A stretch of DNA of 39,314 nt. Source: a bacterium. GTDB taxonomy: Bacteria; Desulfobacterota; Desulfuromonadia; Desulfuromonadales; JAAYDE01. The DNA lies in contig JAILGY010000036.1 of the NCBI GenBank assembly GCA_024696325.1, positions 1-39,314 of the forward strand, written 5' to 3'. Below, in pieces: positions 1,750 through 33,048 of the stretch; the first letter of the stretch is position 1, and each line of letters begins with the position of its first letter. The position numbers and the translations under genes were made by a program. The notes below the pieces were generated by a model. It was given only the letters and a program-made list of their open reading frames with translations. It was not told the origin of the DNA and did not search any database.

Positions 1750-1774
1750 GAAAAAACATACCCTGGAAAGAGCT

Positions 1775-1810
1775 AAAAAAAGCCGGCGGGCAACAATTCC
1801 CCCCGCCGGC
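1775..1810 (-). terminator. Intrinsic terminator downstream of the FKBP gene, in the convergent gap with the NUDIX gene
   Basis: Perfect 9-bp GC-rich stem GCCGGCGGG (1782-1790) / CCCGCCGGC (1802-1810). A flanking A7 run at 1775-1781 gives a U-run on the minus strand. Confidence 0.6.
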
Positions 1811-1858
1811 CTTGAGGCTTGCATCACGTGCGCAGCACGATACCTTTGCCTTTCGGTT

Positions 1859-2296
1859 TCAGGATTTGACGATTTCCAACAGCTCAATGTCAAAATTGAG
1901 CTCCTGCCCGGCCAGGTAGTGATTGGCATCCAGCACCGCGTAACCTTCCCCTACCGAACGCACGGTGACCTTCACCACTTTCCCCTTCTCGTTGCCCATC
2001 TCAAAGACCGTCCCCAGTTCGGGCAGCTTGTGCCCCGGGAAAGCCTCCGGCTGCGCCTTGAACACCAGAAAATCGCGGTAGGGGCCGTAGGCCTCCTCCA
2101 CCTTCAGATGAACATGTTTCTTCTCGCCAACCTTCATCCCCAGCAAGGCCCGGCTGAAACCTCTAATGATGTCCTGGCTCCCCACCTGAAAGGTCAGCGG
2201 CTCGTCCGCCGTGGTCACATCAAACTCAGAGCCGTCGTTAAGCGTGCCGCGATAACAGACCTTGACCGTATCCCCCACCTTTACTTCTTCCGCCAT
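1859..2296 (-). CDS. FKBP-type peptidyl-prolyl cis-trans isomerase (SlyD/SlpA-like with insert-in-flap domain)
   Basis: 145-aa ORF. FKBP signature (VGDTVKVCYRGTL.DGSEFD, FQVGSQDIIRGFSRALLGMKVGEKK, EEAYG). GAGGAAG RBS upstream of the ATG. Confidence 0.85.
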   Translation of the reverse strand: MAEEVKVGDTVKVCYRGTLNDGSEFDVTTADEPLTFQVGSQDIIRGFSRALLGMKVGEKKHVHLKVEEAYGPYRDFLVFKAQPEAFPGHKLPELGTVFEMGNEKGKVVKVTVRSVGEGYAVLDANHYLAGQELNFDIELLEIVKS

Positions 2297-18174: not shown

Positions 18175-18286
18175 GGGAAAACAATTCTTGATTTGAAACA
18201 TTTTCTTTGTACTGTCATGGTGCAATGCGCTACATCTTGCGAGACGCATCTGCGAAAACTACTATTTTTTGCAACAGGAGGAAGTT

Positions 18287-19120
18287 TTGAAAAGAGTTCT
18301 CACCATTCAGGATATTTCATGCCTGGGCAAATGTTCTCTGACCATCGCCCTGCCCATCATTTCGGCACTCGGCAGCGAAACGGTCATCCTGCCCACGGCG
18401 GTGCTGTCCACCCATACGATGTTTAAAAATTTCACCTGCAAGGACCTTTCCGACCAGCTCGACCCCATTGTTGAACACTGGAAAAGCGAAGGTTTTGGCT
18501 TTGACGCCATCTATACCGGCTATCTCGGCACGATTGCCCAAATTGATCAGATGAAGCGGCTGTTCCGGGATTTCCGGGGCAAGGACACGATAATTTTTGT
18601 CGATCCGGTCATGGCCGACAACGGCAAGCTGTACCCGGCCTTCAACATGGACTATGTGAAGAAAAACGCGGAACTCTGCGCGGAAGCCGACATCATCGTG
18701 CCGAACATCACGGAAGCGTCCCTGATGACCGGTGCAGAATACCGGGAAAATCATGACGAAGCCTATATCAAGGACCTCCTGATGCGGCTGAACGCCTTCG
18801 GCGCAAAGATCAGCGTGCTGACCGGCGTCTGCCTGGAACCGGGGATGATCGGCGTAATGGCCTATGAACGGGAAAGCGACACGTACTTCACCTACCAGCG
18901 CCCGCGCATTGACGCGGTTTATCACGGCACCGGCGATCTCTTTTCCAGCACCTGCATCGGTGAAATCATGCGGGGCGTGCACTGGAAAGACGCCCTCAAA
19001 ATCGCGGCCGAGTACACCGCCCATACCATGGAAGTCACCCTGCAAAACCCCGACAAACCCTGGTACGGCGTCGATTTCGAAGCGACCATCCCCGATCTGC
19101 TCGCCATGAAGGCCGTGTAA
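18287..19120 (+). CDS. pdxK: Pyridoxal/pyridoxamine kinase (PdxK/PdxY family)
   Basis: Ribokinase-fold pyridoxal kinase motifs (VLTIQDISCLGKCSLT.ALPI, DAIYTGYLG, VDPVMADNGKLY, GTGDLFSS). I placed the start at the TTG at 18287, 3 nt after AGGAGGAAG; the track ORF starts at the TTG at 18269. Confidence 0.8.
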   Translation: MKRVLTIQDISCLGKCSLTIALPIISALGSETVILPTAVLSTHTMFKNFTCKDLSDQLDPIVEHWKSEGFGFDAIYTGYLGTIAQIDQMKRLFRDFRGKDTIIFVDPVMADNGKLYPAFNMDYVKKNAELCAEADIIVPNITEASLMTGAEYRENHDEAYIKDLLMRLNAFGAKISVLTGVCLEPGMIGVMAYERESDTYFTYQRPRIDAVYHGTGDLFSSTCIGEIMRGVHWKDALKIAAEYTAHTMEVTLQNPDKPWYGVDFEATIPDLLAMKAV

Positions 19121-19144
19121 AAGCACATCCGTCCACTGAAAAAA

Positions 19145-19177
19145 GGGGCTGTTCTATTATGGAACAGCCCCTTTTTT
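19145..19177 (+). terminator. Intrinsic terminator after pdxK
   Basis: Perfect 10-bp stem GGGGCTGTTC (19145-19154) / GAACAGCCCC (19162-19171), 7-nt loop, then T6. Confidence 0.8.
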
Positions 19178-19502
19178 CATCATATTTCCAATACTCGCCA
19201 CTCGTCAACCTGCCTGGTCTTCGTGCTGAAATTCACGCTCGGCCTGAACTTTGCCCTGAAAGCGACTCGCTCTTCCTCCAGGTGTGGTCAATTTTAAAGT
19301 TTATCAGATTTTTGTTCCCATCATCCCCCGTCGCAGCGTGTTCTGGGCACCGGGTTAAATATGTTGAGATACCCCTCTAAAATGGACGGGATAAGCTATC
19401 TCCAACTTCAAGAGAGCGCCTCTGTCTTCGCATGCAGTTTCTAAGCTTTAGGCTGCGGTGATACGACTCAGAGGCTGTCCTCAATTCTTTTTCATTTTTT
19501 CC

Positions 19503-19531
19503 TTGACATTCATCACAGAATGGCATAAAGA
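19503..19531 (+). promoter_or_regulatory. Candidate promoter of the sulfate-assimilation operon
   Basis: Perfect TTGACA at 19503-19508. The -10 is weak or ambiguous: TAAAGA with a 17-nt spacer, or AAAGAT with an 18-nt spacer. Confidence 0.35.
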
Positions 19532-19549
19532 TGCTCCCCACGAAATAAC

Positions 19550-19572
19550 ATACCAACATAGTTGGTTGGTAT
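19550..19572. promoter_or_regulatory. Inverted repeat between the promoter and the leader ORF (candidate operator or 5' hairpin)
   Basis: ATACCAAC-N7-GTTGGTAT is a perfect 8-bp inverted repeat. It has a nested CCAAC-ATA-GTTGG palindrome and lies 10 nt upstream of the leader-ORF SD. Confidence 0.3.
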
Positions 19573-19593
19573 CTTTAACGGAAGGAGAAAAAT

Positions 19594-19725
19594 ATGAATG
19601 CCTCGTTTCTGTGCCGAAGGTCGTGCTGTTGCTGTGAAGGCCCGTCCCGTCGAACGTGTTGCCTCCGATGTTGCACTGTCCTGATGTGTTCGCACACAGT
19701 TGGACAAAGACGAATGCACACCTGA
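19594..19725 (+). CDS. Cysteine-rich leader peptide (43 aa, 10 Cys), candidate regulatory uORF
   Basis: It is below the ORF-track size cutoff and was read directly. AAGGAG (19582-19587) lies 6 nt before the ATG. Translation: MNASFLCRRSCCCCEGPSRRTCCLRCCTVLMCSHTVGQRRMHT*. Cys codons are at 19612, 19624-19635 (four in a row), 19657-19662, 19669-19674 and 19687. Confidence 0.6.
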   Translation: MNASFLCRRSCCCCEGPSRRTCCLRCCTVLMCSHTVGQRRMHT

Positions 19726-19756
19726 GCGGGATGAACGGATTATCCCGCTTTTTTAT
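19726..19756 (+). terminator. Intrinsic terminator (attenuator) between the leader ORF and sbp
   Basis: Stem GCGGGAT (19726-19732) / ATCCCGC (19742-19748), 9-nt loop, then TTTTTTATT. It starts 1 nt after the leader stop codon and ends 46 nt before the sbp ATG. Confidence 0.7.
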
Positions 19757-19802
19757 TGTCTGAAAAACATGACTACAACCATTTGAAAAGGAATACATCA
19801 CC

Positions 19803-20888
19803 ATGAAGCATCGCAAAAAACATCTCTTTGCCCCGGCATTCGCCGCTGCTCTCGCCTTGGGAGTACTGGGCGCATTGGCCACCCCGGTTTCTGGAAACGC
19901 CGCGGAGAAGAAAGACCCTATCGAACTGACGAATGTCTCCTACGATCCGACCCGCGAGTTGTATGCCGCCTACAACAAAATCTTCGAACCGCACTATGAA
20001 AAACTGACCGGCCGCAAAATCTCGGTGACCCAGTCCCACGGTGGGTCCGGTAAACAGGCGCTGGAGGTGGCCAACGGTCTTGAAGCCGATGTGGTTACTC
20101 TGGCTCTGGAAGGCGACGTGCAGGTCGTAGCCAACGCCGGGCTCATCGAACCTGGCTTTACTTCCGAATTTCCGTTGGACAGCTCGCCCTATACGTCGGT
20201 CATCGTGTTTCTCGTTCGTGCCGGAAATCCCAAGAAGATTCTCGACTGGAACGATCTCGTCCGGGACGATGTGGGCATCATCACTCCCAACCCAAAGACT
20301 TCGGGCGGCGCCATGTGGAATTACCTTGCAGCCTGGCGCTACTTCGAGCTTCAGGGGCAGGACAACAAGCAGATTCTGAACTCCATCCGCAAACTGTACA
20401 GTAACGTGGTGGTCCTGGATTCCGGGGCACGCGGCTCCACCACCTCCTTTGTGGAAAACAAGCAGGGCGACGTGCTGCTGGCCTGGGAGAACGAGGCCTT
20501 CCTGTCCCTGAAAGAATATCCGGGTGAATACGAGATTGTGGTTCCTTCTGTCTCCATCCTGTGCCAGCCCACCGTGGCCGTGGTGGACAAGGTGGCCAAA
20601 AAGCACGGCACAACGGACGCAGCCAAGGAGTATTTGCGCTATCTTTACTCCGAGAAGGCCCAAATCATTGAGGCCCAAAACTTCTACCGTCCAAGTTCGA
20701 AAGCAATCCGCGACCGTTTCGTCTCGACATCCGAATCCTCCACCATCACCGCGATTCCTGCGGACGGCCGGTGGATCAACGAAAAAGTGCATCTTACCGA
20801 TATCAGACACTTCGGCGGCTGGACCAAGGCAAGAGCCGTCCACTTCGCCAACGGCGCCAATTTTGACAGCATCTACGAGCGCCGTTAG
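19803..20888 (+). CDS. sbp: Sulfate/thiosulfate ABC transporter substrate-binding protein
   Basis: 361 aa. Signal peptide. Sbp/CysP motifs (LTNVSYDPTRELY, SHGGSGKQA, ADVVTLAL, PKTSGGA.WNYLAAW). Confidence 0.9.
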   Translation: MKHRKKHLFAPAFAAALALGVLGALATPVSGNAAEKKDPIELTNVSYDPTRELYAAYNKIFEPHYEKLTGRKISVTQSHGGSGKQALEVANGLEADVVTLALEGDVQVVANAGLIEPGFTSEFPLDSSPYTSVIVFLVRAGNPKKILDWNDLVRDDVGIITPNPKTSGGAMWNYLAAWRYFELQGQDNKQILNSIRKLYSNVVVLDSGARGSTTSFVENKQGDVLLAWENEAFLSLKEYPGEYEIVVPSVSILCQPTVAVVDKVAKKHGTTDAAKEYLRYLYSEKAQIIEAQNFYRPSSKAIRDRFVSTSESSTITAIPADGRWINEKVHLTDIRHFGGWTKARAVHFANGANFDSIYERR

Positions 20889-20896
20889 CGGCACTG

Positions 20897-20935
20897 CTTT
20901 TCGGGGCGCAGGCCGGGACGCTTCGCCCCGAAAAG
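20897..20935 (+). promoter_or_regulatory. Intercistronic stem-loop after sbp (mRNA stabiliser or partial terminator)
   Basis: Perfect 12-bp stem CTTTTCGGGGCG (20897-20908) / CGCCCCGAAAAG (20924-20935), 15-nt loop, no clean U-run downstream. Confidence 0.55.
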
Positions 20936-20969
20936 CTCTGTTTGCACCACAACGCCTTAAGGAAAATCC

Positions 20970-21818
20970 ATGAAACATACAACGCGAAACAACCGGCACA
21001 GCATCATCCCCGGCTTCGGATTGTCTTTCGGAGTCATGATTACCATCCTGAGTCTGGTGGTGCTGATTCCGCTGTGCTCACTGGTGGTCTTTGCGGCCAA
21101 GCTCTCGCCCGCCGAATTTTTTTACATCATCACCCGGCCACGGGTCTTGTCGAGCTGCTGGGTGAGCCTCTCCACTGCGCTAACGGCGGCGTTGGTCAAC
21201 GCGGTCATGGGACTTGTCCTTGCCTGGGTACTGGTGCGTTACGAATTTCCCGGCAAACGTTTTATCGACGGTATCATTGAACTGCCCTTCGCCCTGCCCA
21301 CGGCTGTGGCGGGCATCTCCCTAACCCATCTGACCACAACCAATGGCTGGGTAGGAAAAATTTTTCACGATCTCTTCGGCATCCGCATCGCCTACACCCG
21401 TCTGGGCATTATCGTGGCCCTTGTCTTCATTGGCATTCCTTTCGTGGTGCGCTCAATTCAGCCTGTGCTGGAGAAAATCGATATCCAGTACGAGGAGGCA
21501 GCTATGATTCTGGGCGCAAACGGCAGGACTACCTTTCGCCGGGTTATTTTCCCGGAAATTCTCCCGGCGCTGATTTCCGGTTTCACCCTGGCTTTTGCCC
21601 GCGGCATCGGAGAATACGGCAGCGTGGTCTTCATCGCGGGCAACACACCCTACAAGACGGAGATAGCCCCGCTGCTCATCATGGCGGAACTACAGGAATT
21701 CGACTATGCCGCTGCCACCACCATCGCGCTGATGATGCTGGCCATCGCCTTCATCATTCTGTCTGTAAACGCGATCTTGCAAAGCGTCGTATCCCGCCGC
21801 ATCAGCGGACTGGCCTAG
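20970..21818 (+). CDS. cysT: Sulfate ABC transporter permease CysT
   Basis: 282 aa. CysT-like motifs (IPGFGLSFG, VLVRYEFPGKRFIDGIIELPFALPTAVAGI). Confidence 0.9.
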   Translation: MKHTTRNNRHSIIPGFGLSFGVMITILSLVVLIPLCSLVVFAAKLSPAEFFYIITRPRVLSSCWVSLSTALTAALVNAVMGLVLAWVLVRYEFPGKRFIDGIIELPFALPTAVAGISLTHLTTTNGWVGKIFHDLFGIRIAYTRLGIIVALVFIGIPFVVRSIQPVLEKIDIQYEEAAMILGANGRTTFRRVIFPEILPALISGFTLAFARGIGEYGSVVFIAGNTPYKTEIAPLLIMAELQEFDYAAATTIALMMLAIAFIILSVNAILQSVVSRRISGLA

Positions 21819-21828
21819 GGAGGAAATT

Positions 21829-22659
21829 ATGGAACTCCGGAAAAACAGAGGTCTCCTGAAGTGGACTCTGATCACGCTCTGCGCGGTCTTTCTGGCCGTT
21901 TTCCTGTTACTGCCGCTCGTGTATATCATCATCACGGCGCTCCGAGAAGGATATGCCATCTATATTAAAAAGATCACGGACATCTACGCATGCAAAGCGG
22001 CCTGGCTCACGGTACAGGCTACAGTCTGGGCCGTGGTGGTCAATACGATCTGCGGTGTTGCCGCGGCATGGTGCCTGACAAAATTCGCCTTCAGAGGTAA
22101 AAAGCTCATTGCCACCTTTATCGATCTGCCGGTTACGGTATCCCCCATTATCGCGGGCCTCATCTATCTTCTCACCTTCGGCCGTCAGAGCTTTTTGCAT
22201 CCGCTTCTGGAAAACTGGGACATCAAGATCGTCTTCGCCGTTCCGGGCATCGTCCTGGCAACGATCTTTGTCACCTTCCCGTTTATCTCCCGGGAACTGA
22301 TCCCGGTACTGACGGCCCAGGGCACGGACGAGGAAGAGGCCGCTGCCCTCATGGGCGCAGGGACTTTTACCATCTTCCGCAAGGTGACTCTGCCTCACAT
22401 CAAGTGGGCGCTTCTGTACGGCGTCGTACTCTGCACGGCCCGGGCCATGGGAGAATTTGGAGCGGTCTCTGTCCTTTCCGGGCATCTCCGGGGCAAAACC
22501 AACACACTGCCGCTGTACATCGAACTGCTGTATCAGGGCTATGATTTCACCGGCGCATTCGCCGCGTCGTCACTTTTGGTGGTGATGGCGCTTGTCATTT
22601 TAGCACTTCGTCTCTGGCTGGAACGCCGGGGCAAAAAGGAACTGGACATCCGAAAGTGA
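21829..22659 (+). CDS. cysW: Sulfate ABC transporter permease CysW
   Basis: 276 aa. CysW-like motifs (FRGKKLIATFIDLPVTVSPIIAGL, EEAAALMGA). Confidence 0.9.
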   Translation: MELRKNRGLLKWTLITLCAVFLAVFLLLPLVYIIITALREGYAIYIKKITDIYACKAAWLTVQATVWAVVVNTICGVAAAWCLTKFAFRGKKLIATFIDLPVTVSPIIAGLIYLLTFGRQSFLHPLLENWDIKIVFAVPGIVLATIFVTFPFISRELIPVLTAQGTDEEEAAALMGAGTFTIFRKVTLPHIKWALLYGVVLCTARAMGEFGAVSVLSGHLRGKTNTLPLYIELLYQGYDFTGAFAASSLLVVMALVILALRLWLERRGKKELDIRK

Positions 22660-22669
22660 GGTAACCGTC

Positions 22670-23743
22670 ATGAACGGATATGCCGCTTATGTGGAACTTC
22701 GGAATATTAACAAGCATTTCAATGACTTTCATGCTTCAAAAGATATCAACATTGCTATTCCCAAAGGAAGGCTGGTCGCGTTGCTCGGTCCCTCCGGCAG
22801 TGGAAAAACTACAATTTTGCGCATGATTGCCGGACTGGAGCAGCCGGATTCCGGCGAGATTCTCATTGACGGTCAGGTGGTCAACGATGTGCCCGGCAGT
22901 GAGCGGGGTATTGGCTTCGTCTTCCAGAACTATGCATTGTTCCGCTCCATGACGGTCTTTGAAAACATCGCCTTCGGTTTGCGGGTGAAGAAGGCGCCGG
23001 AAAACATCATCCAGGAGCGGGTGGCCGAATTGCTTGCGCTCATCGACTGCAAGGGTCTGGAAAAACGTTATCCCAGCCAGCTCTCCGGCGGCCAGCGCCA
23101 ACGCGTGGCCTTTGCAAGGGCACTGGCGCCCAATCCCCAGATTCTGCTTCTGGACGAGCCCTTTGCCGCCATTGATGCCAAAGTCCGGCTGGAATTACGT
23201 ACCTGGCTGCGGGAGATGATCACAAGACTGCACATTACCAGCATTTTCGTCACTCATGATCAGGACGAGGCCATTGAGGTAGCAGACGAGATCGTCGTGA
23301 CCAACCAGGGACGGGTGGAGCAGTCCGGTTCGCCGCAGGAGCTGTATGCCCGTCCGGCCACATCCTTTGTTGCACGTTTCATTGGCAACTCCATTCTGGT
23401 GAAAAATTACGAACGTTTTCACCATTTTGATCGGCGTGGCGCGGACACGGAGGCCATTCTCCGGCCGGAGTTCGTTGGTATCTTCAAGAAGGGTGAAAAT
23501 CTCCAGTATTCGAGTTCCGCCGAGGAAGGCGTGGTGGAAGACATCATTTTCCGGGGCAGCAGCCTGGAAATTCGCGTGCGCCTGCACGGCAATCTGCTAT
23601 CCGCTCTTCGCAGCATCAACGAGCCGACCATCCAGGTGGGCGAAACGGTGGACGTATTCATCTATCGGCTGTTCGTCATCGACGGCAGCACTGTAACGCT
23701 GGCGCACAACCAGTCGCTGGCGCGGGAAAGCGTGGTGATCTGA
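22670..23743 (+). CDS. cysA: Sulfate ABC transporter ATP-binding protein CysA
   Basis: 357 aa. Walker A GPSGSGKTT, signature LSGGQRQRVA, Walker B LLLDEPF, plus a C-terminal TOBE-like regulatory domain. Confidence 0.9.
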   Translation: MNGYAAYVELRNINKHFNDFHASKDINIAIPKGRLVALLGPSGSGKTTILRMIAGLEQPDSGEILIDGQVVNDVPGSERGIGFVFQNYALFRSMTVFENIAFGLRVKKAPENIIQERVAELLALIDCKGLEKRYPSQLSGGQRQRVAFARALAPNPQILLLDEPFAAIDAKVRLELRTWLREMITRLHITSIFVTHDQDEAIEVADEIVVTNQGRVEQSGSPQELYARPATSFVARFIGNSILVKNYERFHHFDRRGADTEAILRPEFVGIFKKGENLQYSSSAEEGVVEDIIFRGSSLEIRVRLHGNLLSALRSINEPTIQVGETVDVFIYRLFVIDGSTVTLAHNQSLARESVVI

Positions 23744-23744
23744 A

Positions 23745-25436
23745 ATGATGAAGAAACGGTTTTTGGCAACCGACATACTTGTCGCCGGAGGAGGAACAGC
23801 AGGCTGCTACGCCGCTATTACCGCGGCGCGGCGTTCTCCGGATATCGGCATTCTGATTGTGGAAAAGGCGAATGTGGAGCGTTCCGGCTGCCTGGCTGCC
23901 GGGGTAAACGCACTGAACGCCTACATTACGGAGGGGCAGAGCGTTCGGGACTATCTGGAATTCGTCCGCCAGGACGCGGAAAAGATTATACGCGATGACC
24001 TCGTCCTCACCATGGCGGAGCGTTTCAACGAAACTGCCGCAGATCTGGAACGCATGGGGCTGGTGATCCAGAAGGACAAAAACGGAAACTATGCCGCCCG
24101 TGGCCGGCACAACATCCGGATCAATGGAGAAAACATCAAGCCCATACTGGCCGCTGAAACACGGCGTCATGGGAACATCCGTATCCTGAACCATGTTAAC
24201 CTGACGGAGCTCCTGACCTGGGACGGCCGCGTGATAGGCGCGGCGGGTTTTTCCGTAACGGACGAAACCGCCTATGCCATTTTTGCGCGAGCGGTGATCA
24301 TGGCCACCGGAGGAGCAGCGGGATTGTACCGTCCCAACAACCCCGGTTTCTCCCGGCACAAGATGTGGTACCCGCCTTTTAACACCGGGGCGGGTTACGC
24401 CATGGGCATCAGGGCTGGGGCGGAAATGACCAGCTTCGAGATGCGCTTTGTCGCCCAGCGCTGCAAGGATACCATCGCCCCGACAGGCACCATTGCCCTA
24501 GGAGCCGGTGCGCGGGAAATAAACGCGCTGGGCGAGATATTTGAGACACGTTACGGACTTTCCACCTCAGGCCGGGCTTATGGAGCAGCCAATGAGGTCC
24601 GGGAAGGACGCGGACCCTGTTTTCTACGCACGCAGGGCATCACCCCCAAACAGGATAATGATCTGTTGAAAGCCTACCTTAACATGGCTCCCGCACAAAC
24701 GTTGAAATGGATCGAAAGCGGAAAGCTGCCGTCCGGGTACAACGTGGAGGTGGAAGGTACGGAGCCCTACATCGTCGGCGGACATACTGGAAGCGGATAC
24801 TGGGTAGACACGGCACGGCGCACCACCCTTCCCGGTCTGTACGCAGCCGGCGACGTATCCGGCGGCGCACCGAAAAAGTTCGTCACCGGTGCTCTGGCCG
24901 AGGGTGCCATAGCGGCCGAGACGGCACTGGCTGATCTGAAAGTCCTGCCCGATGTTCCGGAACTCGCATTTGCGGAACAGGCAAACACGGTCTTTGCCGA
25001 ATATGAAACGCATCTTGCCCCTTTGGATAAAAAGACACTTTTCGACATATCCGCCCTGGAGGAAGCCATGCAGAAAATCATGGACGAATATGCCGGAGGC
25101 ATCCGCACCGGGTACCGCTACAACGAAAACCAGCTTTCCGTGGCGGAGGAGCGAATAGCATCACTGGCCGGGCTGGTTGAAAATCTGCGCGCCGAAGATG
25201 GAGACGGACTTCTCCGCATCTATGAACTCACCGAGCGCCTTACGGTTTGCCGGACACTGCTGGCCCACATGCGGGAGCGGAAAGAAACCCGCTGGCCGGG
25301 TTTCGGCATCCACACCGGTTACCCCAATGTGGACGAATGGCAGGAAAACTACGTCAACTCAAAACTCACGGACGGCCGTATAGAAGTTTTCCGCCGGGAG
25401 CTGGTCGGGGAGGACAACTATGAGCATACGCATTGA
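23745..25436 (+). CDS. AprA-like FAD flavoprotein (adenylylsulfate reductase alpha-subunit / fumarate reductase flavoprotein superfamily)
   Basis: 563 aa. N-terminal FAD dinucleotide fold (DILVAGGGTAGCYAA). AprA-like segments (GLYAAGDVSGG, PYIVGGHTGSGYW). Lies between cysA and cysD. Confidence 0.7.
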   Translation: MMKKRFLATDILVAGGGTAGCYAAITAARRSPDIGILIVEKANVERSGCLAAGVNALNAYITEGQSVRDYLEFVRQDAEKIIRDDLVLTMAERFNETAADLERMGLVIQKDKNGNYAARGRHNIRINGENIKPILAAETRRHGNIRILNHVNLTELLTWDGRVIGAAGFSVTDETAYAIFARAVIMATGGAAGLYRPNNPGFSRHKMWYPPFNTGAGYAMGIRAGAEMTSFEMRFVAQRCKDTIAPTGTIALGAGAREINALGEIFETRYGLSTSGRAYGAANEVREGRGPCFLRTQGITPKQDNDLLKAYLNMAPAQTLKWIESGKLPSGYNVEVEGTEPYIVGGHTGSGYWVDTARRTTLPGLYAAGDVSGGAPKKFVTGALAEGAIAAETALADLKVLPDVPELAFAEQANTVFAEYETHLAPLDKKTLFDISALEEAMQKIMDEYAGGIRTGYRYNENQLSVAEERIASLAGLVENLRAEDGDGLLRIYELTERLTVCRTLLAHMRERKETRWPGFGIHTGYPNVDEWQENYVNSKLTDGRIEVFRRELVGEDNYEHTH

Positions 25437-25734
25437 CCAGGAAAAATGCGCGGCCTGCGGCCGCTGCCGGGAAATTTGTCCAGGAAATCTCATAAAACGG
25501 GCTGAGAACGGCAAAGTGTTTCTGAAACGGCCGGAGGAGTGCTGGGGCTGCGCCTCATGCCTTAAAGAATGTGTCCACGGTGCCATTGCCTACTTCCTCG
25601 GAGCGGACATCGGCGGACGCGGGAGCCTCATGCGGACAAAGCGCGAGGGGGATGTCACCGACTGGATCATCACCCTTCCGGAAGGGAAAACCGTCACCAT
25701 CTCGGTCAACAGGCGCAACGCCAACGAATATTAG
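25420..25734 (+). CDS. Small 2x[4Fe-4S] ferredoxin (AprB-like partner of the flavoprotein)
   Basis: 104 aa. [12 protein letters not shown] and [11 protein letters not shown] motifs. The start overlaps the flavoprotein gene by 17 nt. Confidence 0.7.
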
Positions 25735-25747
25735 GAGGCATAAAGAC

Positions 25748-26650
25748 ATGCGGGAATTATCCCATCTCGACAAACTGGAGGCGGAAGCTATTTACATTAT
25801 CCGAGAGGTAGCGGCGGAGTGCGAAAAGCCGGTGATGCTCTACTCCATCGGCAAAGACAGCTCCGTCATGCTGCATCTGGCCAGAAAAGCCTTTTATCCG
25901 GAAAAGCCGCCTTTCCCCTTTTTACATATAGATACAGGATGGAAATTCAGGGAAATGATCACCTTCCGGGATAACATGGCAAAGAGATACGGCCTTGACA
26001 TGCTCGTCTACACCAACGAAGAGGGAGTGCGGCAAGGCATCAACCCATTCGATCATGGCGCTGTTTACACGGATGTGATGAAGACCCAGGCACTCAAACA
26101 GGCACTCACGAAGTACGGCTTCACAGCGGCTTTCGGCGGTGGACGACGAGACGAAGAAAAGTCCCGCGCCAAGGAACGCATTTTTTCTTTCCGCAACACC
26201 GAACAGGCCTGGGATCCGAAAAACCAGCGCCCGGAGATGTGGAAGCTCTACAATACCCGTATCAAAAAAGGTGAAAGCATCCGGGTGTTTCCCATCTCCA
26301 ATTGGACGGAGAAGGATATCTGGCAGTATATCCGGCGTGAGAGCATAGAAATCGTACCGCTGTACTTCGCGGCAAAGCGTCCCGTTGTTCGCCGGGACGG
26401 CAACATCATCATGGTGGACGATGATCGTTTGCCGCTTTTACCCGGTGAGAGGCCGGAGTATCTAAGCGTGCGTTTCCGCACCCTGGGTTGTTACCCGCTG
26501 ACCGGCGGTGTGGAATCGACGGCGGATACACTGGATGCCATTGTCAGAGAAACATTGAGTGCTGTCACGAGCGAACGCACCAGCCGTGTCATAGATCGGG
26601 ATGGCGGCGCAGCCAGCATGGAAAAACGCAAACGGGAGGGATATTTCTGA
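25748..26650 (+). CDS. cysD: Sulfate adenylyltransferase subunit 2 (CysD)
   Basis: CysD N-terminus ([21 protein letters not shown]...[18 protein letters not shown]). AGGAGG RBS before the ATG at 25748. The track ORF start at 25571 is an upstream extension that overlaps the ferredoxin gene. Confidence 0.9.
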
Positions 26651-28248
26651 TGAACGGACTTCTGAAATTCATCACCTGTGGCAGCGTGGATGACGGTAAG
26701 TCCACACTCATCGGGCACATTCTTTACGACACCAAGCTCCTCTATGCCGATCAGGAGCGAGCACTGGAACTGGACAGCCGTGTGGGCTCCCGGGGCGGAG
26801 CGATCGATTACTCCCTGCTTCTGGACGGGCTTATGGCGGAACGCGAACAGGGCATCACCATCGACGTGGCCTACCGTTATTTCACGACAGATCGACGCAG
26901 CTTCATTGTGGCAGACACGCCTGGACATGAGGAATACACCCGCAATATGGCGGTAGGCGCAAGTTTCGCCGATCTGGCGGTTATTCTGGTAGATGCAACG
27001 AAGGGCGTGCTTGTGCAGACGCGCCGTCATGCGCGCATCTGCGCACTCATGGGCATCCGAGCTTTCGTATTCGCTGTAAACAAAATGGATCTGGTAGAGT
27101 ATGACCGCAAACCCTTTGAAAAGATTCAGGCGCAAATAGAGGAACTTGAAAACGAACTGGGGCTGCAGGACGTCAAAATCATCCCGCTCTCCGCCACAAC
27201 AGGGGAGAATTTGACAAAACCGTCAGCTCTCATGGACTGGTACCAGGGCGGACCTTTGCTGAACTGGCTCGAAACGGTGGCAGTGGAACCCGCCGGTCAC
27301 GAGGAGGGATTTTACATGCCCGTCCAGCGGGTATGCCGTCCGGATCATACCTTCCGGGGCTTTCAGGGACAAATCGAAACCGGTGAGATCCGGATCGGAG
27401 ATATGCTGAGCGTTCTGCCCAGCGGCACAAAGGCCGGTGTAAAAAACATACTGGTGGGCGATCAGTCCGTCAGTGCAGCAGGAGAAGGCCAGCCCGTTAC
27501 CATAGAACTGGATACGGAGGTGGACATCTCGCGCGGCAGCGTTCTCGTCAAAGACACGGTTCCGCACACGGCCAGCCATTTCGATGCCACCCTGCTCTGG
27601 ATGGATGACGAGACATTGACCCATTCCCGTGCCCTCTTTATCAAGGCAGGCACCCGGCTCATACCGGCAAAGATTGACAGCATCCGTTACACCGTGGATG
27701 TAAATACCGGTGAACACAGAAATGCCACAAGCCTGAAAAAGAACGAAATCGCCCTGTGCTCCATCTCGCTGTCGTCCCCAATTGTGGTGGACACCTTTTC
27801 CAGCCACCGGACACTGGGCGAACTGATCCTGATTGATCGGATCACCAACGCCACTGCCGCCTGTGGTATCATCGAAACGGTCTTTGATGCCGGTGAACAG
27901 AACGCGGAAAAGATCGGCCCGGAAACGCGGGCGAAATATATGGGCCAGACGCCGTTTCTCATCCTTGCGGACAACATCCACAAAGCCGAGGAAATTGAGC
28001 GGGAACTGCTCTCTCAGGGACTTCACACCATGCAGGTGCGCGAAAGTGGCGAGCATCTCCTTTTCGCCGCGGATCTGCTGCAGCAGGCCGGGATCATCAC
28101 GGTCATCCCTGGAGAGTCTCTGGATGCTCCGACGGAAAAGCGGATCCGGCAGGAACGGCGGCCGGAATTCGTTCTGGATCTTCGGGAAAGTGGACCGGAA
28201 AAGGATCGTCTGCTGTACGAAAATACCGTAAATTATACATACTACTAG
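26650..28248 (+). CDS. cysN: Sulfate adenylyltransferase subunit 1 (CysN GTPase) with a ~115-aa C-terminal extension
   Basis: The start ATG overlaps the cysD TGA (TGATG). GTPase motifs: GSVDDGKST, DTPGHEEY, NKMD. 532 aa, against roughly 475 aa for stand-alone CysN. Confidence 0.9.
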   Translation: MNGLLKFITCGSVDDGKSTLIGHILYDTKLLYADQERALELDSRVGSRGGAIDYSLLLDGLMAEREQGITIDVAYRYFTTDRRSFIVADTPGHEEYTRNMAVGASFADLAVILVDATKGVLVQTRRHARICALMGIRAFVFAVNKMDLVEYDRKPFEKIQAQIEELENELGLQDVKIIPLSATTGENLTKPSALMDWYQGGPLLNWLETVAVEPAGHEEGFYMPVQRVCRPDHTFRGFQGQIETGEIRIGDMLSVLPSGTKAGVKNILVGDQSVSAAGEGQPVTIELDTEVDISRGSVLVKDTVPHTASHFDATLLWMDDETLTHSRALFIKAGTRLIPAKIDSIRYTVDVNTGEHRNATSLKKNEIALCSISLSSPIVVDTFSSHRTLGELILIDRITNATAACGIIETVFDAGEQNAEKIGPETRAKYMGQTPFLILADNIHKAEEIERELLSQGLHTMQVRESGEHLLFAADLLQQAGIITVIPGESLDAPTEKRIRQERRPEFVLDLRESGPEKDRLLYENTVNYTYY

Positions 28249-28262
28249 AAGGAGGATTTCCC

Positions 28263-29123
28263 ATGGCTGTGGACTATGCGGCACTCAAGGCCGGCGGTTT
28301 TATGCGCCAGAAGCAGAAGAACACCTTTTCTCTCCGTCTGCGGGTGGTAGGCGGCACACTGACGGTGGAGCAACTTCAGACCATCGCCGCCGCAGCAAAA
28401 AAATACGGAAAGAACTACGTTCACCTCACTTCACGCCAGGGGGTGGAAATTCCCTTTATCCGGCTTGAAGACATTGAAAACATCAAAAACGACCTTGCCG
28501 CGGGCGGGGTGTCCCCCAGTGTCTGCGGGCCCCGCGTCCGAACGGTAACGGCCTGTCAGGGAGGACAATGCTGCCCCAGCGGCTGCATCGACGCGCTGGC
28601 CATTGCCACCGAGCTGGATCGCCGCTACTTCGGGCGGCAGCTACCCCACAAATTCAAGTTTGGCGTCACCGGATGCCAGAACAACTGCCTCAAGGCCGAG
28701 GAAAACGATCTGGGCGTCAAGGGCGGCATGGCCATCTCCTGGGCGGCGGATGAATGCACTCTCTGCGGTGTATGCGAAAAAGCCTGCCGCCGTGACGCGA
28801 TCTCCATGGGAAATGGCAAGATTGTGCTGGATGCGGGAAAATGCAACCACTGCGGCCGCTGCGTCATGGCCTGCCCCTCCGGAGCCTGGCACGGAAAAAG
28901 CGGTTACCTCGTCTCCTTCGGCGGCACTTTCGGAAATGCCATTCGGAAAGGCAGGGAGCTTCTTCCTCTTGTTGAAGACGAGGAGACATTGTGGCGGATA
29001 GCGGACACCGCCATCGAATATTTTGCCCAAAACGCCCAGCCCGGCGAACGCTTCGCCAAAGTACTGGAGCGTTTGGGATGGGATGATTTCACACGGAAAG
29101 TACGGGAAGCATATCAGGCTTGA
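28263..29123 (+). CDS. Small siroheme/[4Fe-4S] sulfite reductase with an inserted ferredoxin domain (low-molecular-weight assimilatory or AsrC/Dsr-like type)
   Basis: 286 aa. Sulfite/nitrite reductase Cys cluster (TACQGGQCC...GVTGCQNNC). Two inserted CxxCxxCxxxC motifs (CTLCGVCEKAC, CNHCGRCVMACP). GGAGG RBS. Confidence 0.8.
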   Translation: MAVDYAALKAGGFMRQKQKNTFSLRLRVVGGTLTVEQLQTIAAAAKKYGKNYVHLTSRQGVEIPFIRLEDIENIKNDLAAGGVSPSVCGPRVRTVTACQGGQCCPSGCIDALAIATELDRRYFGRQLPHKFKFGVTGCQNNCLKAEENDLGVKGGMAISWAADECTLCGVCEKACRRDAISMGNGKIVLDAGKCNHCGRCVMACPSGAWHGKSGYLVSFGGTFGNAIRKGRELLPLVEDEETLWRIADTAIEYFAQNAQPGERFAKVLERLGWDDFTRKVREAYQA

Positions 29124-29206
29124 CGTGAACCCCCCAAAAAACTTGAAAAGGTGGGAAACTCATCCCGAAGACAGGCGTTCCTAAACGGCAACGGAGAGGA
29201 GTATCA

Positions 29207-30059
29207 ATGTCTTTGCCGGAATTGTCTCCAGAACTGAAACGAAAATTTGCTCGACTCCAGGCATATATCAGAACCCTGAATAGTCTGGTGGTAGCCTGCT
29301 CCGGAGGCGTAGATTCCACTCTCCTGCTTGCGGTGGCCCACGAGGTTCTGGGTGACCGGGTACTGGCTGTCACCGGCGCAGACGTCTCGGTGCCCAGCCG
29401 GGAAGTGGAGTTTGTGCGAACCTTTTGCGCGGCCCGGGGCATCCGGCATGTCATTTGCCCGGTCAATCCGCTGAAGGAAGCGGGCTACCGGCACAACAGT
29501 CCGGACCGCTGTTATTTTTGCAAAAAGATCCTGTTTACTGCGCTGATGGGCATCGCCCGGAAAAAGAGCACATATCGCGGAAGGCTCCAACAGGGATGAC
29601 ACGGGCGATTACCGGCCCGGACTGAGGGCTGCGGCGGAACTGTCGGTCAAAAGTCCGCTCAAGGAGGCGGGACTGGGCAAAGAGGAAATTCGCTTGCTTG
29701 CCAAAGCACTGGGCCTGCCAATCTGGGACAAGCCCGCCTCCGCCTGCCTGGCATCACGTTTCTCCTATGGCGAGGAAATTACCGAAGAAAAATTGCGCTG
29801 CGTCGAGCGCGCCGAACAATTTCTCATGGACAGCGGTTTTCGGCAGGCGCGGGTCAGAATTCACGGGCATCTCGCCAGAATTGAGGTGCCTCGGGAAGAT
29901 ATCGAAAAGCTGGCGGCGGCGGAGATACGTCAGGCTGTCTGCCAAGAATTCCGACGCATCGGTTTTCTGTTCACCGCCTTGGATCTGGAGGGCTACCGCA
30001 CCGGCAGTATGAACGCGGCTCTATCGCGCGAAACACCCGCCGGATTTCCGGGACGTTGA
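29207..30059 (+). pseudogene. larE: LarE-like PP-loop ATP pyrophosphatase / sulfur transferase, interrupted by a +1 frameshift
   Basis: The two track ORFs (29207-29599 and 29694-30059) together form one LarE/TIGR00268-like protein. They carry the PP-loop ACSGGVDS, CYFCKK, DDTGDYRPG and the SACLASRF Cys motif. The reading frames change at the A5 run at 29561-29565. Removing one A gives a continuous ...IARKRAHIAEGSNRDDTGDYRPG.... Confidence 0.7.
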
Positions 30060-30125
30060 CGCTTGACGCAGCTCACAAGGAAAACACGGGCAAAAGCCTC
30101 ATCAATCAAGAAGGGAAAATCAATC

Positions 30126-31127
30126 ATGACAACCTTGCTGCAAGACGTTGAAGAACGCCTGTTTTCCGGCGGAAGCATCGACCGGGATGCAGCTCTGGCG
30201 CTGACCGAATGGCCGGACAAACCTTCCCTCTACCGCCTGGCTGACAAGATCCGCCGCCATTTCATGGGTGACCGCTTCGACGCCTGCGCCATCATCAACG
30301 CCAAAAGCGGCAATTGCATGGAAGACTGCCGCTTCTGCGCCCAGTCGGCCCGGCACCGCACCGAAGCCCCTCATTACGCCTTCATCGACAAGGAGGAGGC
30401 TCTGCGTCTGGCCCGGGACTGCGACGCGCACGGAGTGGAACGTATCGGCCTGGTCACCAGCGGCCGTAAACTGAACGAGCGAACGCTGGCCGACATGGAG
30501 CGGCTTTTCGCCGAAATGGCCAGAAGCACGGGGCTCTATCTCTGCTCCTCGGCCGGACTGCTGGACGAAGCAACCGTCAGCCGCCTCGCCGCGGCCGGGC
30601 TAAAACGTTACCACTGCAATCTGGAGGCCTGCAAAAATTACTTTCCCCAGGTCTGCACCACCCACACTTGGGAGGAAAAGGCAGCCACTCTCAGGCTGGC
30701 GCGCGCACATGGACTGGCGCTTTGCTCCGGCGGCATTATCGGCATGGGCGAGAGCATTGCCGACCGCGTCGATCTGGCTTTGGAGCTGCGGGATTTGGGC
30801 GTCATGTCCATCGCCTTCAACGTGCTCACCCCGATTCCCGGCACACCGCTGGCTCACCTAGAGCCACTTGCCCTGGATGAGGTACTTACCGCGATCGCCG
30901 TGTTCCGCCTGATCAATCCGAAGGCGGTTTTACGCATGTGCGGCGGTCGCCAGCAACTGGGAAAAGATCAGTACCGCTGCTTCACCTCGGGCGCAAACGG
31001 AGCCATTGTAGGCAACTATCTCACCACGAACGGCAACGAACTGGCCGACGATTTGGCCCGTATCAAGGCTTTGGGCTTCACCCTGCCCCGGGAGACAGCC
31101 GGGACGGATCTGAGGCGGACCAGTTAA
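30126..31127 (+). CDS. bioB: Biotin synthase-like radical SAM enzyme (BioB)
   Basis: Radical SAM CMEDCRFC motif. BioB motifs YHCNLE, LCSGGIIGMGE, RMCGGRQ, NYLTT.G. I placed the start at the ATG at 30126 (MTTLLQD...). Confidence 0.85.
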   Translation: MTTLLQDVEERLFSGGSIDRDAALALTEWPDKPSLYRLADKIRRHFMGDRFDACAIINAKSGNCMEDCRFCAQSARHRTEAPHYAFIDKEEALRLARDCDAHGVERIGLVTSGRKLNERTLADMERLFAEMARSTGLYLCSSAGLLDEATVSRLAAAGLKRYHCNLEACKNYFPQVCTTHTWEEKAATLRLARAHGLALCSGGIIGMGESIADRVDLALELRDLGVMSIAFNVLTPIPGTPLAHLEPLALDEVLTAIAVFRLINPKAVLRMCGGRQQLGKDQYRCFTSGANGAIVGNYLTTNGNELADDLARIKALGFTLPRETAGTDLRRTS

Positions 31128-31192
31128 ACGCCTGTTGAATCCCGCCGGCAGTGTGGAAACCCGCAGTTCCTTTTTTACGCGAGGCGACAGCC

Positions 31193-31678
31193 ATGAAAAT
31201 ATGCATCACAGCTCTCCTGGCCTGCGTAGCCCTGTTTTTTCCCGTATCCGCCGTGTCCGCGTTTCCGGCGGATGCCCCCGCCTGGTCACTGGATGCGGCG
31301 GGCAATCTGCATATCCACGCCGGTCAAGTAACGGCCAAGCCCCTGTTCATTCCCCTGAAAGCGGGGGAAACCTCCATGGAAATCATCGCGGTACGCGACG
31401 GAAACGGCGAAATACGGGCAGCCTTCAACACATGCCAGATCTGCAACGGCGCGCCCCGCACCTATTTTGTCCACCAAAGCAAGCTCTTTGCCCCCAAAGG
31501 CTTTGTCTGTCAGAACTGCGGCAACGTGTTTTCCGCCAAGCAGCTCGGCCTGCAAGGCAACGGCTGCCACCCCCTGGCCATACCCAACTTGAGCACCGCT
31601 GTGGAAAACATCATCATTCCCGCAGACGTCCTGATTGTGCACACACCCTTTTTCCGCAACTGGGAAAGAGGACTTTAA
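31193..31678 (+). CDS. Exported DUF2318-like Cys4 (zinc-ribbon/Fe-S-like) protein
   Basis: Start set at the ATG at 31193, which gives a signal peptide (MKICITALLACVALFFPVSAVSA). CQICNG...CQNCGN pair of CxxC motifs plus GCHP. Confidence 0.6.
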   Translation: MKICITALLACVALFFPVSAVSAFPADAPAWSLDAAGNLHIHAGQVTAKPLFIPLKAGETSMEIIAVRDGNGEIRAAFNTCQICNGAPRTYFVHQSKLFAPKGFVCQNCGNVFSAKQLGLQGNGCHPLAIPNLSTAVENIIIPADVLIVHTPFFRNWERGL

Positions 31679-33048
31679 TGGACAGCAGCACGCTTCGCCT
31701 GAATATTGCGGGCATGACCTGCCCGCTCTGCGAGGAACGGGTGGCAAAGGCACTGTCCGCCGTACCCGGCGTACTGGGGGCAAAAGCCGACTTCGCACGG
31801 GGGGAAGCGGCATTGAAGCTCGCTCCGGAACAAAAAGCGGCACTTCTCATGCCCAAACTCCATCAGGCTGTGCAGGAAGCCGGTTACCGCATCGTCCCGC
31901 AGCCGGGTAAGGAAACCGGGGCTAAATTCGGCCAGGTTTTGGGGCTTCTCGGTATGGCGCTTCTTATCTTTTGGGCAGGCAAGCACTTCATCCCCGCCAA
32001 ACTCACCGGCTTTTTCCCCGGCCCTGGCCAGGCGGCAAGCCTGGGAGCGCTCTTCAGCGTGGGCCTCCTGACTGCCCCTCACTGCCTGGCCATGTGCGGC
32101 GGCATTGCCATGTCCCATGGCCTCTGGGCCGCGAAAAACGCCGGCCAGGGAACCGGTATCCGTCAGGCCGCTCTTTGCTTTCAGGCAGGCAGACTGCTCT
32201 CCTACAGCGCCACAGGTGCAATCGCAGGCCTGCTCGGCCAAACCTTTGCGCTTGAGCCTGTTATGCGAGGAGGCCTCATGCTCCTGGCTGGCGCGTTCAT
32301 GCTGATCATGGCACTGAACATGGTGGGCAGTTTCAGCTTTTTACGGCGTCTGCAATTCCGCCCGCTCCGCCTTCCCGGCCGTCTGGCCGCCAGCTTGCGC
32401 GACCGTTTTTCCGTTTCCGGAACAAGCAGCGGCAGGCATTTCTTTTTGCTTTCCCTCGGCATGGGATTGGCTAACGGGCTTATGCCCTGCGGCCCGCTGC
32501 AGCTTATGCAGGTCTATGCCCTGGGCCTGGATGGAGCGGGCTCAGGGGCCGCGGCCTTGGCCGCTTTCTGTCTTGGCACCATGCCCGCCTTGCTGGGTGT
32601 GAACCTGTTTACCGGCCACCTGAACCAAAAGGAGACAAAACGGATCTTTCAAGCGTCGGCGCTCCTGATCATGGTTTTAGCCCTGGGGATGATGCAAAAC
32701 GGATTAGCCCTGACCGGACGGCAAACATTGGCCGCGTCTCAAAACCCGGAAGGTGCGGTCGCACGGCTTACTGCAACCGGGCAGGAAGTCGTTTCCACTG
32801 CGGATTTTGGCGCTTTTCAGCCCATTGTGGTGCAAAAAGGGCTGCCCGTGATATGGAAGCTGATGATGCCCAAAGACAAACTTGTCGGATGCAACAACGC
32901 CATCCTCGTTCCGATCTTCGGGATAGAGCAGCAACTGACAGCAGGGGAAAATCTTATTTCCTTTACCCCCGGGCAAAGCGGAACTTTTGCCTTTACATGC
33001 TGGATGGGCATGATCACCAGCCGCATCACCGTGGTAGACACCCTGTAA
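31678..33048 (+). CDS. HMA domain / DsbD_2 (TauE-SafE/UreH-like) polytopic membrane domain / C-terminal cupredoxin-like domain fusion protein
   Basis: The start ATG overlaps the upstream TAA (TAATG). N-terminal GMTCPLCE heavy-metal-associated motif. TM region with HCLAMCGG and MPCGPLQ motifs. The C-terminal beta-rich domain ends FAFTCWMGMITSRITVV. Confidence 0.7.
   Translation: MDSSTLRLNIAGMTCPLCEERVAKALSAVPGVLGAKADFARGEAALKLAPEQKAALLMPKLHQAVQEAGYRIVPQPGKETGAKFGQVLGLLGMALLIFWAGKHFIPAKLTGFFPGPGQAASLGALFSVGLLTAPHCLAMCGGIAMSHGLWAAKNAGQGTGIRQAALCFQAGRLLSYSATGAIAGLLGQTFALEPVMRGGLMLLAGAFMLIMALNMVGSFSFLRRLQFRPLRLPGRLAASLRDRFSVSGTSSGRHFFLLSLGMGLANGLMPCGPLQLMQVYALGLDGAGSGAAALAAFCLGTMPALLGVNLFTGHLNQKETKRIFQASALLIMVLALGMMQNGLALTGRQTLAASQNPEGAVARLTATGQEVVSTADFGAFQPIVVQKGLPVIWKLMMPKDKLVGCNNAILVPIFGIEQQLTAGENLISFTPGQSGTFAFTCWMGMITSRITVVDTL

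Follow-up and report, generated by a model that had tools for sequence, protein, structure and literature searches.

Introduction

Among the described systems closest to the locus reported here, CupA of Streptococcus pneumoniae binds Cu(I) at two sites, S1 and S2, formed by Cys74, Cys111, Met113 and Met115 (PMC5646241, PMC7558416), and a review confines this protein to a few streptococci (PMC7558416). A 2016 regulon study placed two further families, NOG72602 (DUF2318) and COG2836 (a heavy-metal-associated, or HMA, domain plus DsbD_2), in the CsoR copper meta-regulon of gut Firmicutes (PMC4938975). The sole functional data that we found on DUF2318 come from FetA, encoded in an iron-uptake cluster of Campylobacter jejuni (PMC10783030). 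Here we describe a pair of adjacent genes from a bacterium of the Desulfuromonadales (Desulfobacterota, lineage JAAYDE01), located on a contig of 39,314 nucleotides (JAILGY010000036.1, assembly GCA_024696325.1), the whole of which is called the window below. Gene 1 encodes an exported DUF2318 protein and gene 2 a membrane fusion with an HMA domain, a DsbD_2 core and a C-terminal cupredoxin, and the two stand at the 3′ end of a sulfate-assimilation operon.

With moderate confidence we regard this pair as a copper(I)-handling membrane module. How copper is handled on the outer face of the membrane is poorly understood in anaerobes and Gram-positive bacteria, and if the predicted topology is true the module is a widespread arrangement of a CupA-type Cu(I) site outside, a Cys/Met-lined core and a cytoplasmic HMA domain. 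The family itself had been catalogued before, and a computational link to copper dates from 2016. What is new in this analysis is the CupA-type identity and predicted outside location of the C-terminal domain of the fusion, together with the quantified pairing and genomic context of the two genes and the unusual placement of this copy in a sulfur operon.

A fusion of HMA, DsbD_2 and CupA-type domains

The pair has the following features.

31193..31678, plus strand: gene 1, exported DUF2318/FtrD-like protein of 161 aa (open reading frame translation)
31676..31680, plus strand: TAATG stop/start overlap (sequence and translations)
31678..33048, plus strand: gene 2, 456-aa fusion of HMA, a first transmembrane helix (TM0), DsbD_2 (six transmembrane, or TM, helices) and a CupA-type cupredoxin (translation and Pfam)
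31699..31887, plus strand: HMA domain, residues 8-70, with GMTC15PLC18, predicted cytoplasmic (Pfam PF00403)
32050..32682, plus strand: DsbD_2 membrane core, residues 125-335 (Pfam PF13386)
32743..33036, plus strand: CupA-type cupredoxin domain, residues 356-453, predicted extracytoplasmic (profile, Foldseek and VIA-align)

An earlier sequence-only reading of this DNA had proposed two translationally coupled open reading frames, and sequence and translations bear out both frames and their coupling. The TAA stop of gene 1 (31676-31678) overlaps the ATG of gene 2 (31678-31680), and overlaps of 1-4 nt also occur in homologous pairs, for example at loci L012, L015, L051, L068 and L080. The same reading had divided gene 2 into three parts. 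This division holds as well, with HMA and DsbD_2 recognized by Pfam, the cupredoxin recognized through homologues, profile and fold, and the motifs quoted at that time found to be invariant.

The HMA domain matches PF00403 with 42.3 bits (cut-off 24.8, E 9.7e-11). In VIA-align comparisons its model reaches Z 11.2 to the PacS N-domain (4a48) and Z 9-11 to domains of CopZ, PacS and ZntA, and the NCBIfam CopZ, MerP, MerTP, MerA and CopA models match gene 2 in this part only. The membrane core matches PF13386 with 120.7 bits (cut-off 24.9, E 9.8e-35). An AF2 model of the whole protein (pLDDT 81, pTM 0.69) has seven long helices, one at residues 80-104 followed by the six of the core, of which the first and fourth are broken at their Cys motifs (at 132 and at 268-271).

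These motifs are H135-C136-x-x-M139-C140-G-G in TM1 (HCLAMCGG) and N266-G-x-M269-P-C271-G-P-L-Q-x-M277-Q in TM4 (which contains MPCGPL). In an alignment of 21 homologues of 36-53% identity both are invariant, as are GMxCxxC (GMTCPLC) of the HMA domain and G404-C405-N406 and C441-W-M443-G-M445 of the C-terminal domain, and both deep branches preserve the Cys/Met/His motifs of the membrane core without exception. The fusion carries three conserved soft-metal sites in a line, one in each of its parts: the CxxC of the HMA domain, the Cys, Met and His residues in two broken helices and a CupA-type binuclear site. Loops rich in Arg and Lys lie at residues 146-163, 218-253 (eight Arg) and 313-321. 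The positive-inside rule puts these loops inside, and therefore the HMA domain inside and the C-terminal domain outside. The predicted topology is accordingly N-in, C-out, with a cytoplasmic HMA domain and the CupA-type domain on the outer face, and the DUF2318 partner is likewise predicted to be outside.

Taken alone, the C-terminal domain matches Pfam Cupredoxin_1 weakly (E 0.043), and its homologues pass the cut-off of this model over the aligned region. A profile built from 22 such domains has two matches only in the PDB, both from S. pneumoniae: CupA (2MRY/4F2E, E 5.6e-13) and the metal-binding domain of CopA (4F2F, E 3.1e-11). A whole-protein profile of the fusion also matches CupA. In the profile alignment C405, C441, M443 and M445, which are invariant in the 21- and 22-homologue alignments, correspond to C74, C111, M113 and M115 of CupA, such that the ligands of both the bis-thiolate S1 and the Met-rich S2 Cu(I) sites are kept. 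A terminal C..M motif had been noted before; it is present, and its exact form is C405...C441-x-M443-x-M445.

The modelled fold agrees with the profile. With pLDDT mostly at 80-94 in this domain, the model is an eight-stranded cupredoxin barrel and superposes on 4F2E with a TM score (target) of 0.85 and an rmsd of 1.6 Å in Foldseek, and VIA-align gives Z 15.6 over 96 of 98 residues. As judged from alignment and model, the C-terminal domain of the fusion is a CupA-type Cu(I) cupredoxin in which all four ligands are kept.

Longer forms of the fusion exist (600-830 aa; L152:8871-11375, L311:7980-10388, P0016, P0057), which have two or more tandem cupredoxin domains and in some cases two HMA domains. 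Among 249 anchor sequences, about 72 have a length of 600-650 aa. Five of the long proteins (664-834 aa) were considered as possible Rosetta-stone fusions of DUF2318 to the membrane protein, and this was rejected when their additional sequence was found to be extra cupredoxin domains, not DUF2318.

The DUF2318 partner

Gene 1 matches PF10080 (FtrD-like/DUF2318) with 54.3 bits (E 1.6e-14, cut-off 26.3) and begins with a Sec-type signal peptide (roughly residues 1-23, MKICITALLACVALFFPVSAVSA/FP) that lacks a twin arginine. It had been described as a four-cysteine protein, of which the signal peptide and the two CxxC pairs stand and the number of cysteines does not. An alignment of 25 partners reveals five invariant residues, C81-x-x-C84, C106-x-x-C109 and C125, the last in a GGCNP-type motif.

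The AF2 model of gene 1 (pLDDT 88.7) has structural neighbours that are nearly all Rieske [2Fe-2S] domains, at Z 5-7.5 only, so that the resemblance is no more than a lead. Its ligand pattern is CxxC...CxxC, as opposed to the CxH...CxxH of Rieske domains, whose outside-facing members are exported by the Tat route, and a sequence search of the PDB with DUF2318 returned chance zinc-finger matches only. Most of the 25 aligned partners have Sec or lipoprotein signals and lack a twin-arginine motif, which makes a pre-assembled, exported Fe-S cluster unlikely and favours a metal-ion or thiol site.

Small DUF2318 proteins form at least 342 clusters in the protein collection. The family had been thought to accompany FTR1/EfeU iron-uptake clusters as a rule. 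Our survey argues otherwise, because the short exported form typically adjoins the fusion, in at least 94 of the 248 loci described below and, with few exceptions, on the same strand. Protein families were scanned among window neighbours at roughly 18.3-39.1 kb, and none of the iron-uptake families FTR1/P19, ABC transporter, thioredoxin or YHS type was found there.

The membrane core and the DUF2318 protein together invite another account, in which the pair is a thiol-disulfide (electron) relay of the DsbD/CcdA/ScsB type and the membrane cysteines reduce the external CupA-type domain and the five-cysteine DUF2318 protein. External thiols would then be kept reduced, or Cu(II) would be reduced to Cu(I), while copper stays outside. 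The core does fall in Pfam DsbD_2, and although the window protein has no match to DsbD_TM (PF02683) at E <= 0.1, homologues reach 1e-7 to 1e-9. Invariant cysteines in TM1 and TM4, a P-C-x-P motif and broken helices are all reminiscent of CcdA and DsbD, and the likeness of the DUF2318 model to Rieske electron-transfer domains points the same way. Salmonella requires the DsbD-like protein ScsB in order to tolerate copper. Moreover, CupA reduces Cu(II) in vitro via C74/C111 (PMC5646241).

However, known DsbD relays are fed by thioredoxin and offer no role for a cytoplasmic HMA metal site. DsbD and CcdA have one redox Cys each in TM1 and TM4, whereas the fusion has two cysteines in TM1 (C136 and C140) besides C271 in TM4, and the conserved Met and His residues beside these cysteines suit Cu(I) ligation. 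The signals of most DUF2318 partners, which speak against a pre-assembled Fe-S cluster, count against the relay as well. We consider such a relay unlikely, though it deserves to be kept in view.

Copper genes around the family

To place the proposed copper(I) module in its genomic setting, we combined the 80 best loci each from genomes and from metagenomes with two samples of clostridial orders, each of 401 evenly drawn genomes, among which 71 and 31 genomes had a match. After identical copies were dropped, 248 loci remained besides the window. The family is present in 8-18% of the sampled genomes of the two clostridial orders. All trees were built with FastTree, and their branch supports are SH-like.

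A CopA-type ATPase lies within 5 kb of the fusion at 117 of the 248 loci (with Pfam confirmation in L012), CsoR at 18, and one or the other at 119. A response regulator together with a histidine kinase is found within this distance at 102 loci, and 166 loci have CopA, CsoR or a regulator-kinase pair. These genes crowd around the fusion: per 100 kb, the density of CopA is 18.9 at 0-1 kb versus 0.4-0.7 at 5-10 kb, that of CsoR 2.6 versus 0-0.2, and that of two-component genes 20 versus 1.6-4.3. All 18 neighbouring CsoR proteins contain Cys...His-x-x-x-Cys, which we take to be the Cu(I)-sensing fingerprint, unlike that of the persulfide-sensing CstR type.

An unnamed protein of about 227 aa (212-237 aa) without a Pfam match directly follows the CopA-type ATPase in 54 of the 248 loci (for example L079:9241-9924, L300:4345-4995 and L314:7844-8545, and also in L013, L029 and L041). 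It looks like an unnamed member of cop loci.

Handling of a thiophilic metal was one of several roles that the sequence-only reading had offered, and it is the best supported of them, with copper(I) as the metal. The support comes from the CupA-type ligands, neighbours of the CopA, CsoR and CopZ types, the copper-type CsoR proteins and the predicted CsoR regulon (PMC4938975).

The direction of movement could be inward. In a Mer-like uptake system, external sites would capture a thiophilic metal and the Cys-lined core would deliver it to the cytoplasmic HMA domain, which could supply or safely route metal inside, perhaps to serve an enzyme or cofactor that belongs to the sulfur operon. The architecture mirrors the chain from MerP through MerT to NmerA, and inward movement of a cation follows the membrane potential. 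Relatives within DsbD_2 are annotated as UreH-type nickel permeases, and a LarE-like gene stands two genes upstream of the pair in the window and adjoins the fusion also in L081, L153 and L300. The matches to the NCBIfam MerTP, MerP and MerA models are restricted to the HMA domain, however, and neither cuproenzyme genes nor LarB/LarC were seen among the scanned window neighbours. A regulon induced by excess copper and the adjacency of an exporter argue for detoxification, and we judge uptake of this kind to be quite improbable.

The copy at the end of a sulfate operon

The pair is found here in an unusual position, directly after the spacer listed next.

31128..31192, plus strand: 65-nt spacer between the radical-SAM/BATS gene and gene 1 (sequence)

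Upstream, the genes are ordered sbp, cysT, cysW, cysA, an AprA-like flavoprotein, a small ferredoxin, cysD, cysN, a small sulfite reductase, a split LarE-like PP-loop gene and the radical-SAM/BATS gene, after which gene 1 follows. That the pair closes the sulfur operon, as had been proposed, is confirmed by its position 65 nt after the radical-SAM/BATS gene that ends this sbp-cysTWA-aprAB-like-cysDN-sir-larE-like run. A convergent operon faces the pair and encodes TusA, a JAB protease, ThiF, O-acetylhomoserine sulfhydrylase (OAHS) and a serine-acetyltransferase-like protein.

In the spacer, a GAGG ribosome-binding site is present 9-12 nt ahead of the start codon of gene 1. A weak hairpin with a T-run at 31152-31175 has a terminator-like score not above that of shuffled sequences, the RNA fold z-score of the spacer is -0.58, and a scan of the spacer for promoters found none above chance. 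Because the 65-nt gap lacks a significant terminator, promoter or structure, co-transcription is likely, and the pair is probably transcribed together with the sulfate-assimilation operon. In GC and GC3 the pair is similar to the neighbouring genes and is no outlier.

The LarE-like PP-loop gene of the window (29207-30059) is split into two open reading frames. L081, where the order is LarE-like, ThiF, DUF2318 and fusion, has a full-length relative of 263 aa in the same position relative to the pair.

Across the family, the link to sulfur genes is faint. Twelve sulfur-type families pooled have a density per 100 kb of 2.2 at 0-1 kb versus 1.0-1.4 at 5-10 kb, which is nearly flat, and the density of OAHS is flat with distance from the fusion. 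ThiF-family genes alone are enriched within 1 kb (6 loci, 1.3 versus 0.1-0.4 per 100 kb further out), and a family-wide association with sulfur genes was therefore rejected. The six loci are L040, L081, L086, L096, L102 and L168, a small number in which L081 and L086 are kin. A sulfur-linked clade, called group A, had SH-like supports of 99 and 94 in trees of 81 and 151 rows and was not recovered in the 249-row tree. Since it broke up in the larger tree, we claim no single sulfur-linked subfamily.

Halves of a YeeE/YedE-type 'Sulphur transport' protein and a TusA-like gene are near the fusion at L104:5616-7107 and L124:726-1519, and a thioredoxin-reductase-thioredoxin fusion is also nearby in L124.

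Many homologues bear the database name 'sulfite exporter TauE/SafE', and export of sulfite, sulfide or polysulfide had been put forward for this pair. A Pfam scan of gene 2 shows no match to TauE (PF01925) at E <= 0.1, leaving the name without Pfam support, and there is no enrichment of sulfur genes around the family apart from the weak ThiF signal, so that this proposal is poorly supported. More broadly, a role in transporting a sulfur compound or relaying sulfane sulfur (sulfite, sulfide, polysulfide or thiosulfate, by export or import) would suit the position at the end of the sulfate operon opposite the TusA-JAB-ThiF-OAHS operon, the Cys/Met or thiocarboxylate genes that recur near the fusion in two small branches and sporadically elsewhere (L015, L032, L040, L081, L086, L097, L153, L300 and L313), and the enrichment of ThiF within 1 kb by about 4-fold or more, but the flat sulfur-gene densities, the lost monophyly of group A, the retention of all copper ligands in the sulfur-linked branches and the failure to find the pair in a same-genus genome that shares the start of the sulfate operon and larE-bioB make it highly improbable. 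The pair is probably not a sulfur transporter.

The closest relatives point back to copper. The window fusion is about 50% identical to its nearest relatives, which are metagenomic (P0003-P0015) and whose contexts are represented by L012, L092 and L313. In L012, which is of Desulfovibrionales type, the order is sigma-54 activator, DUF2318, fusion and CopA. In L313 (8028-16305), of the same type, a flavodiiron protein, DUF2318, fusion, CopA, a CysK-like PALP protein and an OAHS-like protein are all encoded on a single strand, with 25 nt between CopA and the gene after it, joining copper genes to those of cysteine and homocysteine synthesis. Both Desulfovibrionales-type relatives with enough flanking sequence thus have DUF2318-fusion-CopA, and the flank of L092, the closest metagenomic relative, is too short for CopA to be called. 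Beside the DUF2318-fusion pair of L092 there is a 663-aa open reading frame without a Pfam match (149-2143, minus strand).

The family is rare in the order that holds L012, with 3 of 401 genomes. A search of 232 other genomes from the order of the window revealed no orthologues, and neither did a search of a same-genus genome (83% complete), in which the first part of the sulfate operon is also present and larE-bioB has another location. In its locus L179 (G001:C146), compared with window positions 16993-31127, the larE-like and radical-SAM (bioB-like) genes are 72% identical at the nucleotide level and lie between the gene at 16993 and pdxK and so do not close the sulfate operon; pdxK and sbp are ~4.3 kb further apart there, and the region is rearranged. 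CopA of the window's own genome shares 59-65% identity with the one encoded after the pair in L012. Most likely, the pair was acquired or relocated from a cop-type DUF2318-fusion-copA unit and subsequently became the tail of the sulfate operon.

Proposed copper(I) handling

If the pair is a copper(I) module, Cu(I) would be passed by ligand exchange among the cytoplasmic HMA domain, the thiolate and thioether sites of the membrane core and the external sites of the CupA-type domain and the DUF2318 protein. Beside a CopA pump, the module may act as a relay or as an external trap that keeps Cu(I) from sensitive targets. The window copy would be read through from the promoter of the sulfate operon, so that its synthesis would be expected under a shortage of cysteine and methionine. 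A protective link would be sensible, given that the Fe-S enzymes of this operon are exposed to Cu(I) when thiol buffering is low. Protection of Fe-S- or thiol-dependent sulfur enzymes and chance insertion are about equally likely as explanations for the placement.

Several observations weigh against a copper(I) module. No CopA, CsoR, CopZ or two-component system is near the pair in the window, no CsoR-type operator is seen upstream of gene 1 (judged by eye), and the csoR-copA genes of the window's genome are split over two short contigs, C88 (L172) and C184 (L002). The fold of residues 105-350 has no convincing match with Foldseek or VIA-align, which is not evidence of a new fold. CupA acts in the cytoplasm, whereas the fusion domain is predicted to be outside, and cation export by a secondary carrier would have to work against the membrane potential, which is energetically awkward. 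We infer copper binding and transport by the module, and a literature search found no experimental work on either protein family, in agreement with the earlier remark that neither gene has an established function.

The branches nearest to the window's gene also belong among these points. In the 13-row branch that contains it (SH-like 98), CopA adjoins the fusion in 2 of the 12 others (L012 and L018), no two-component system is present, and sulfur or Cys/Met genes adjoin in 4 of the 12. An AprA-like flavoprotein and a ferredoxin are directly upstream in L015, as in the window, OAHS is directly downstream in L032, a Glu-Cys-ligase-like gene and an Rrf2 regulator are near the pair in L035, and L051 has a ThiF neighbour. 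A 4-row branch (L081, L066, L086 and L210; SH-like 99) lies among Cys/Met genes, within 5 kb in three cases, and likewise has no two-component pair. In L081 the pair is preceded by Rrf2, a nitrilase-family hydrolase (CN_hydrolase), a LarE-like gene and ThiF, and in L086 by OAHS, an aminotransferase and ThiF, with MTHFR after it. In L066 a Glu-Cys ligase, a fragment of SAM synthetase, a GNAT gene and an Ssu-like ABC system surround the pair, and in L210 OAHS is about 5.4 kb away, outside the 5-kb counting distance. Over both small branches, about half of the members have Cys/Met genes around the pair. Gene neighbourhoods of orthologues, which the sequence-only reading had suggested as a check, are thus linked to copper and not to sulfur for most of the family and for L012 and L313, and not cleanly so in the window's branch.

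In branches away from cop loci, that of the window's gene included, the Cys chain might move sulfane sulfur or reducing equivalents in place of copper. This chain may run from the CxxC of the HMA domain through the membrane cysteines to the external Cys pair and the five-cysteine DUF2318 protein, and may represent a new transmembrane sulfur or thiol relay feeding thiocarboxylate pathways of the ThiF/TusA type. We regard this as a long shot. In a milder variant, copper defence may be deliberately wired to sulfur starvation, when a low thiol pool exposes Fe-S enzymes to Cu(I).

A copper(I) relay, or an external acceptor for CopA, would if true fill a gap in copper homeostasis and would also correct the common mis-annotation as a TauE/SafE sulfite exporter. 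The window copy, standing in a sulfur-starvation operon, lets a coupling of copper defence to thiol supply be examined.

Comparison with known systems

Mer proteins (MerP, MerT and NmerA) likewise arrange a metal site outside, a Cys pair in the membrane and an HMA domain in the cytoplasm. Their membrane parts are not homologous to that of the fusion, however, and the ligand set found here is that for copper, not that for mercury.

FetA of C. jejuni (Cj1660, in fetMP-fetABCDEF) shares with gene 1 a periplasmic DUF2318 domain with two CxxC pairs and a fifth Cys (PMC10783030). FetA differs in having eight TM helices and a YHS domain, and it is encoded beside FTR1/P19, an ABC transporter and thioredoxins, whereas gene 1 encodes a small exported protein with a signal peptide only, which is paired with the copper fusion and has no FTR1/P19 nearby.

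DsbD, CcdA and ScsB have a related membrane core, with TM1 and TM4 cysteines in broken helices. In place of thioredoxin-fold partner domains, the fusion has an HMA domain predicted inside and a Cu(I) cupredoxin predicted outside, and its extra conserved Met and His residues and second TM1 Cys suggest metal ligation.

The CsoR-regulon families COG2836 and NOG72602, reported by the Erill group in 2016 (PMC4938975), are the same two families and were predicted to be copper-responsive. That study was a regulon prediction only, in which the CupA-type domain, the topology and the gene pairing went unrecognized. Unlike those regulon members, the window copy has no CsoR or CopA alongside and resides in a sulfur operon.

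CupA of S. pneumoniae resembles the C-terminal domain most closely in kind, with a cupredoxin beta-barrel, the four Cu(I) ligands Cys...Cys-x-Met-x-Met and a genomic link to the CopA P-type ATPase that is found in most of the fusion family as well. CupA is a stand-alone protein with one N-terminal helix that faces the cytoplasm and hands Cu(I) to CopA. In the fusion, the domain instead follows seven TM helices and is predicted to lie outside, with an HMA domain on the opposite face and a DUF2318 protein as partner, and unlike CupA it is spread through Clostridia, Spirochaetes and others.

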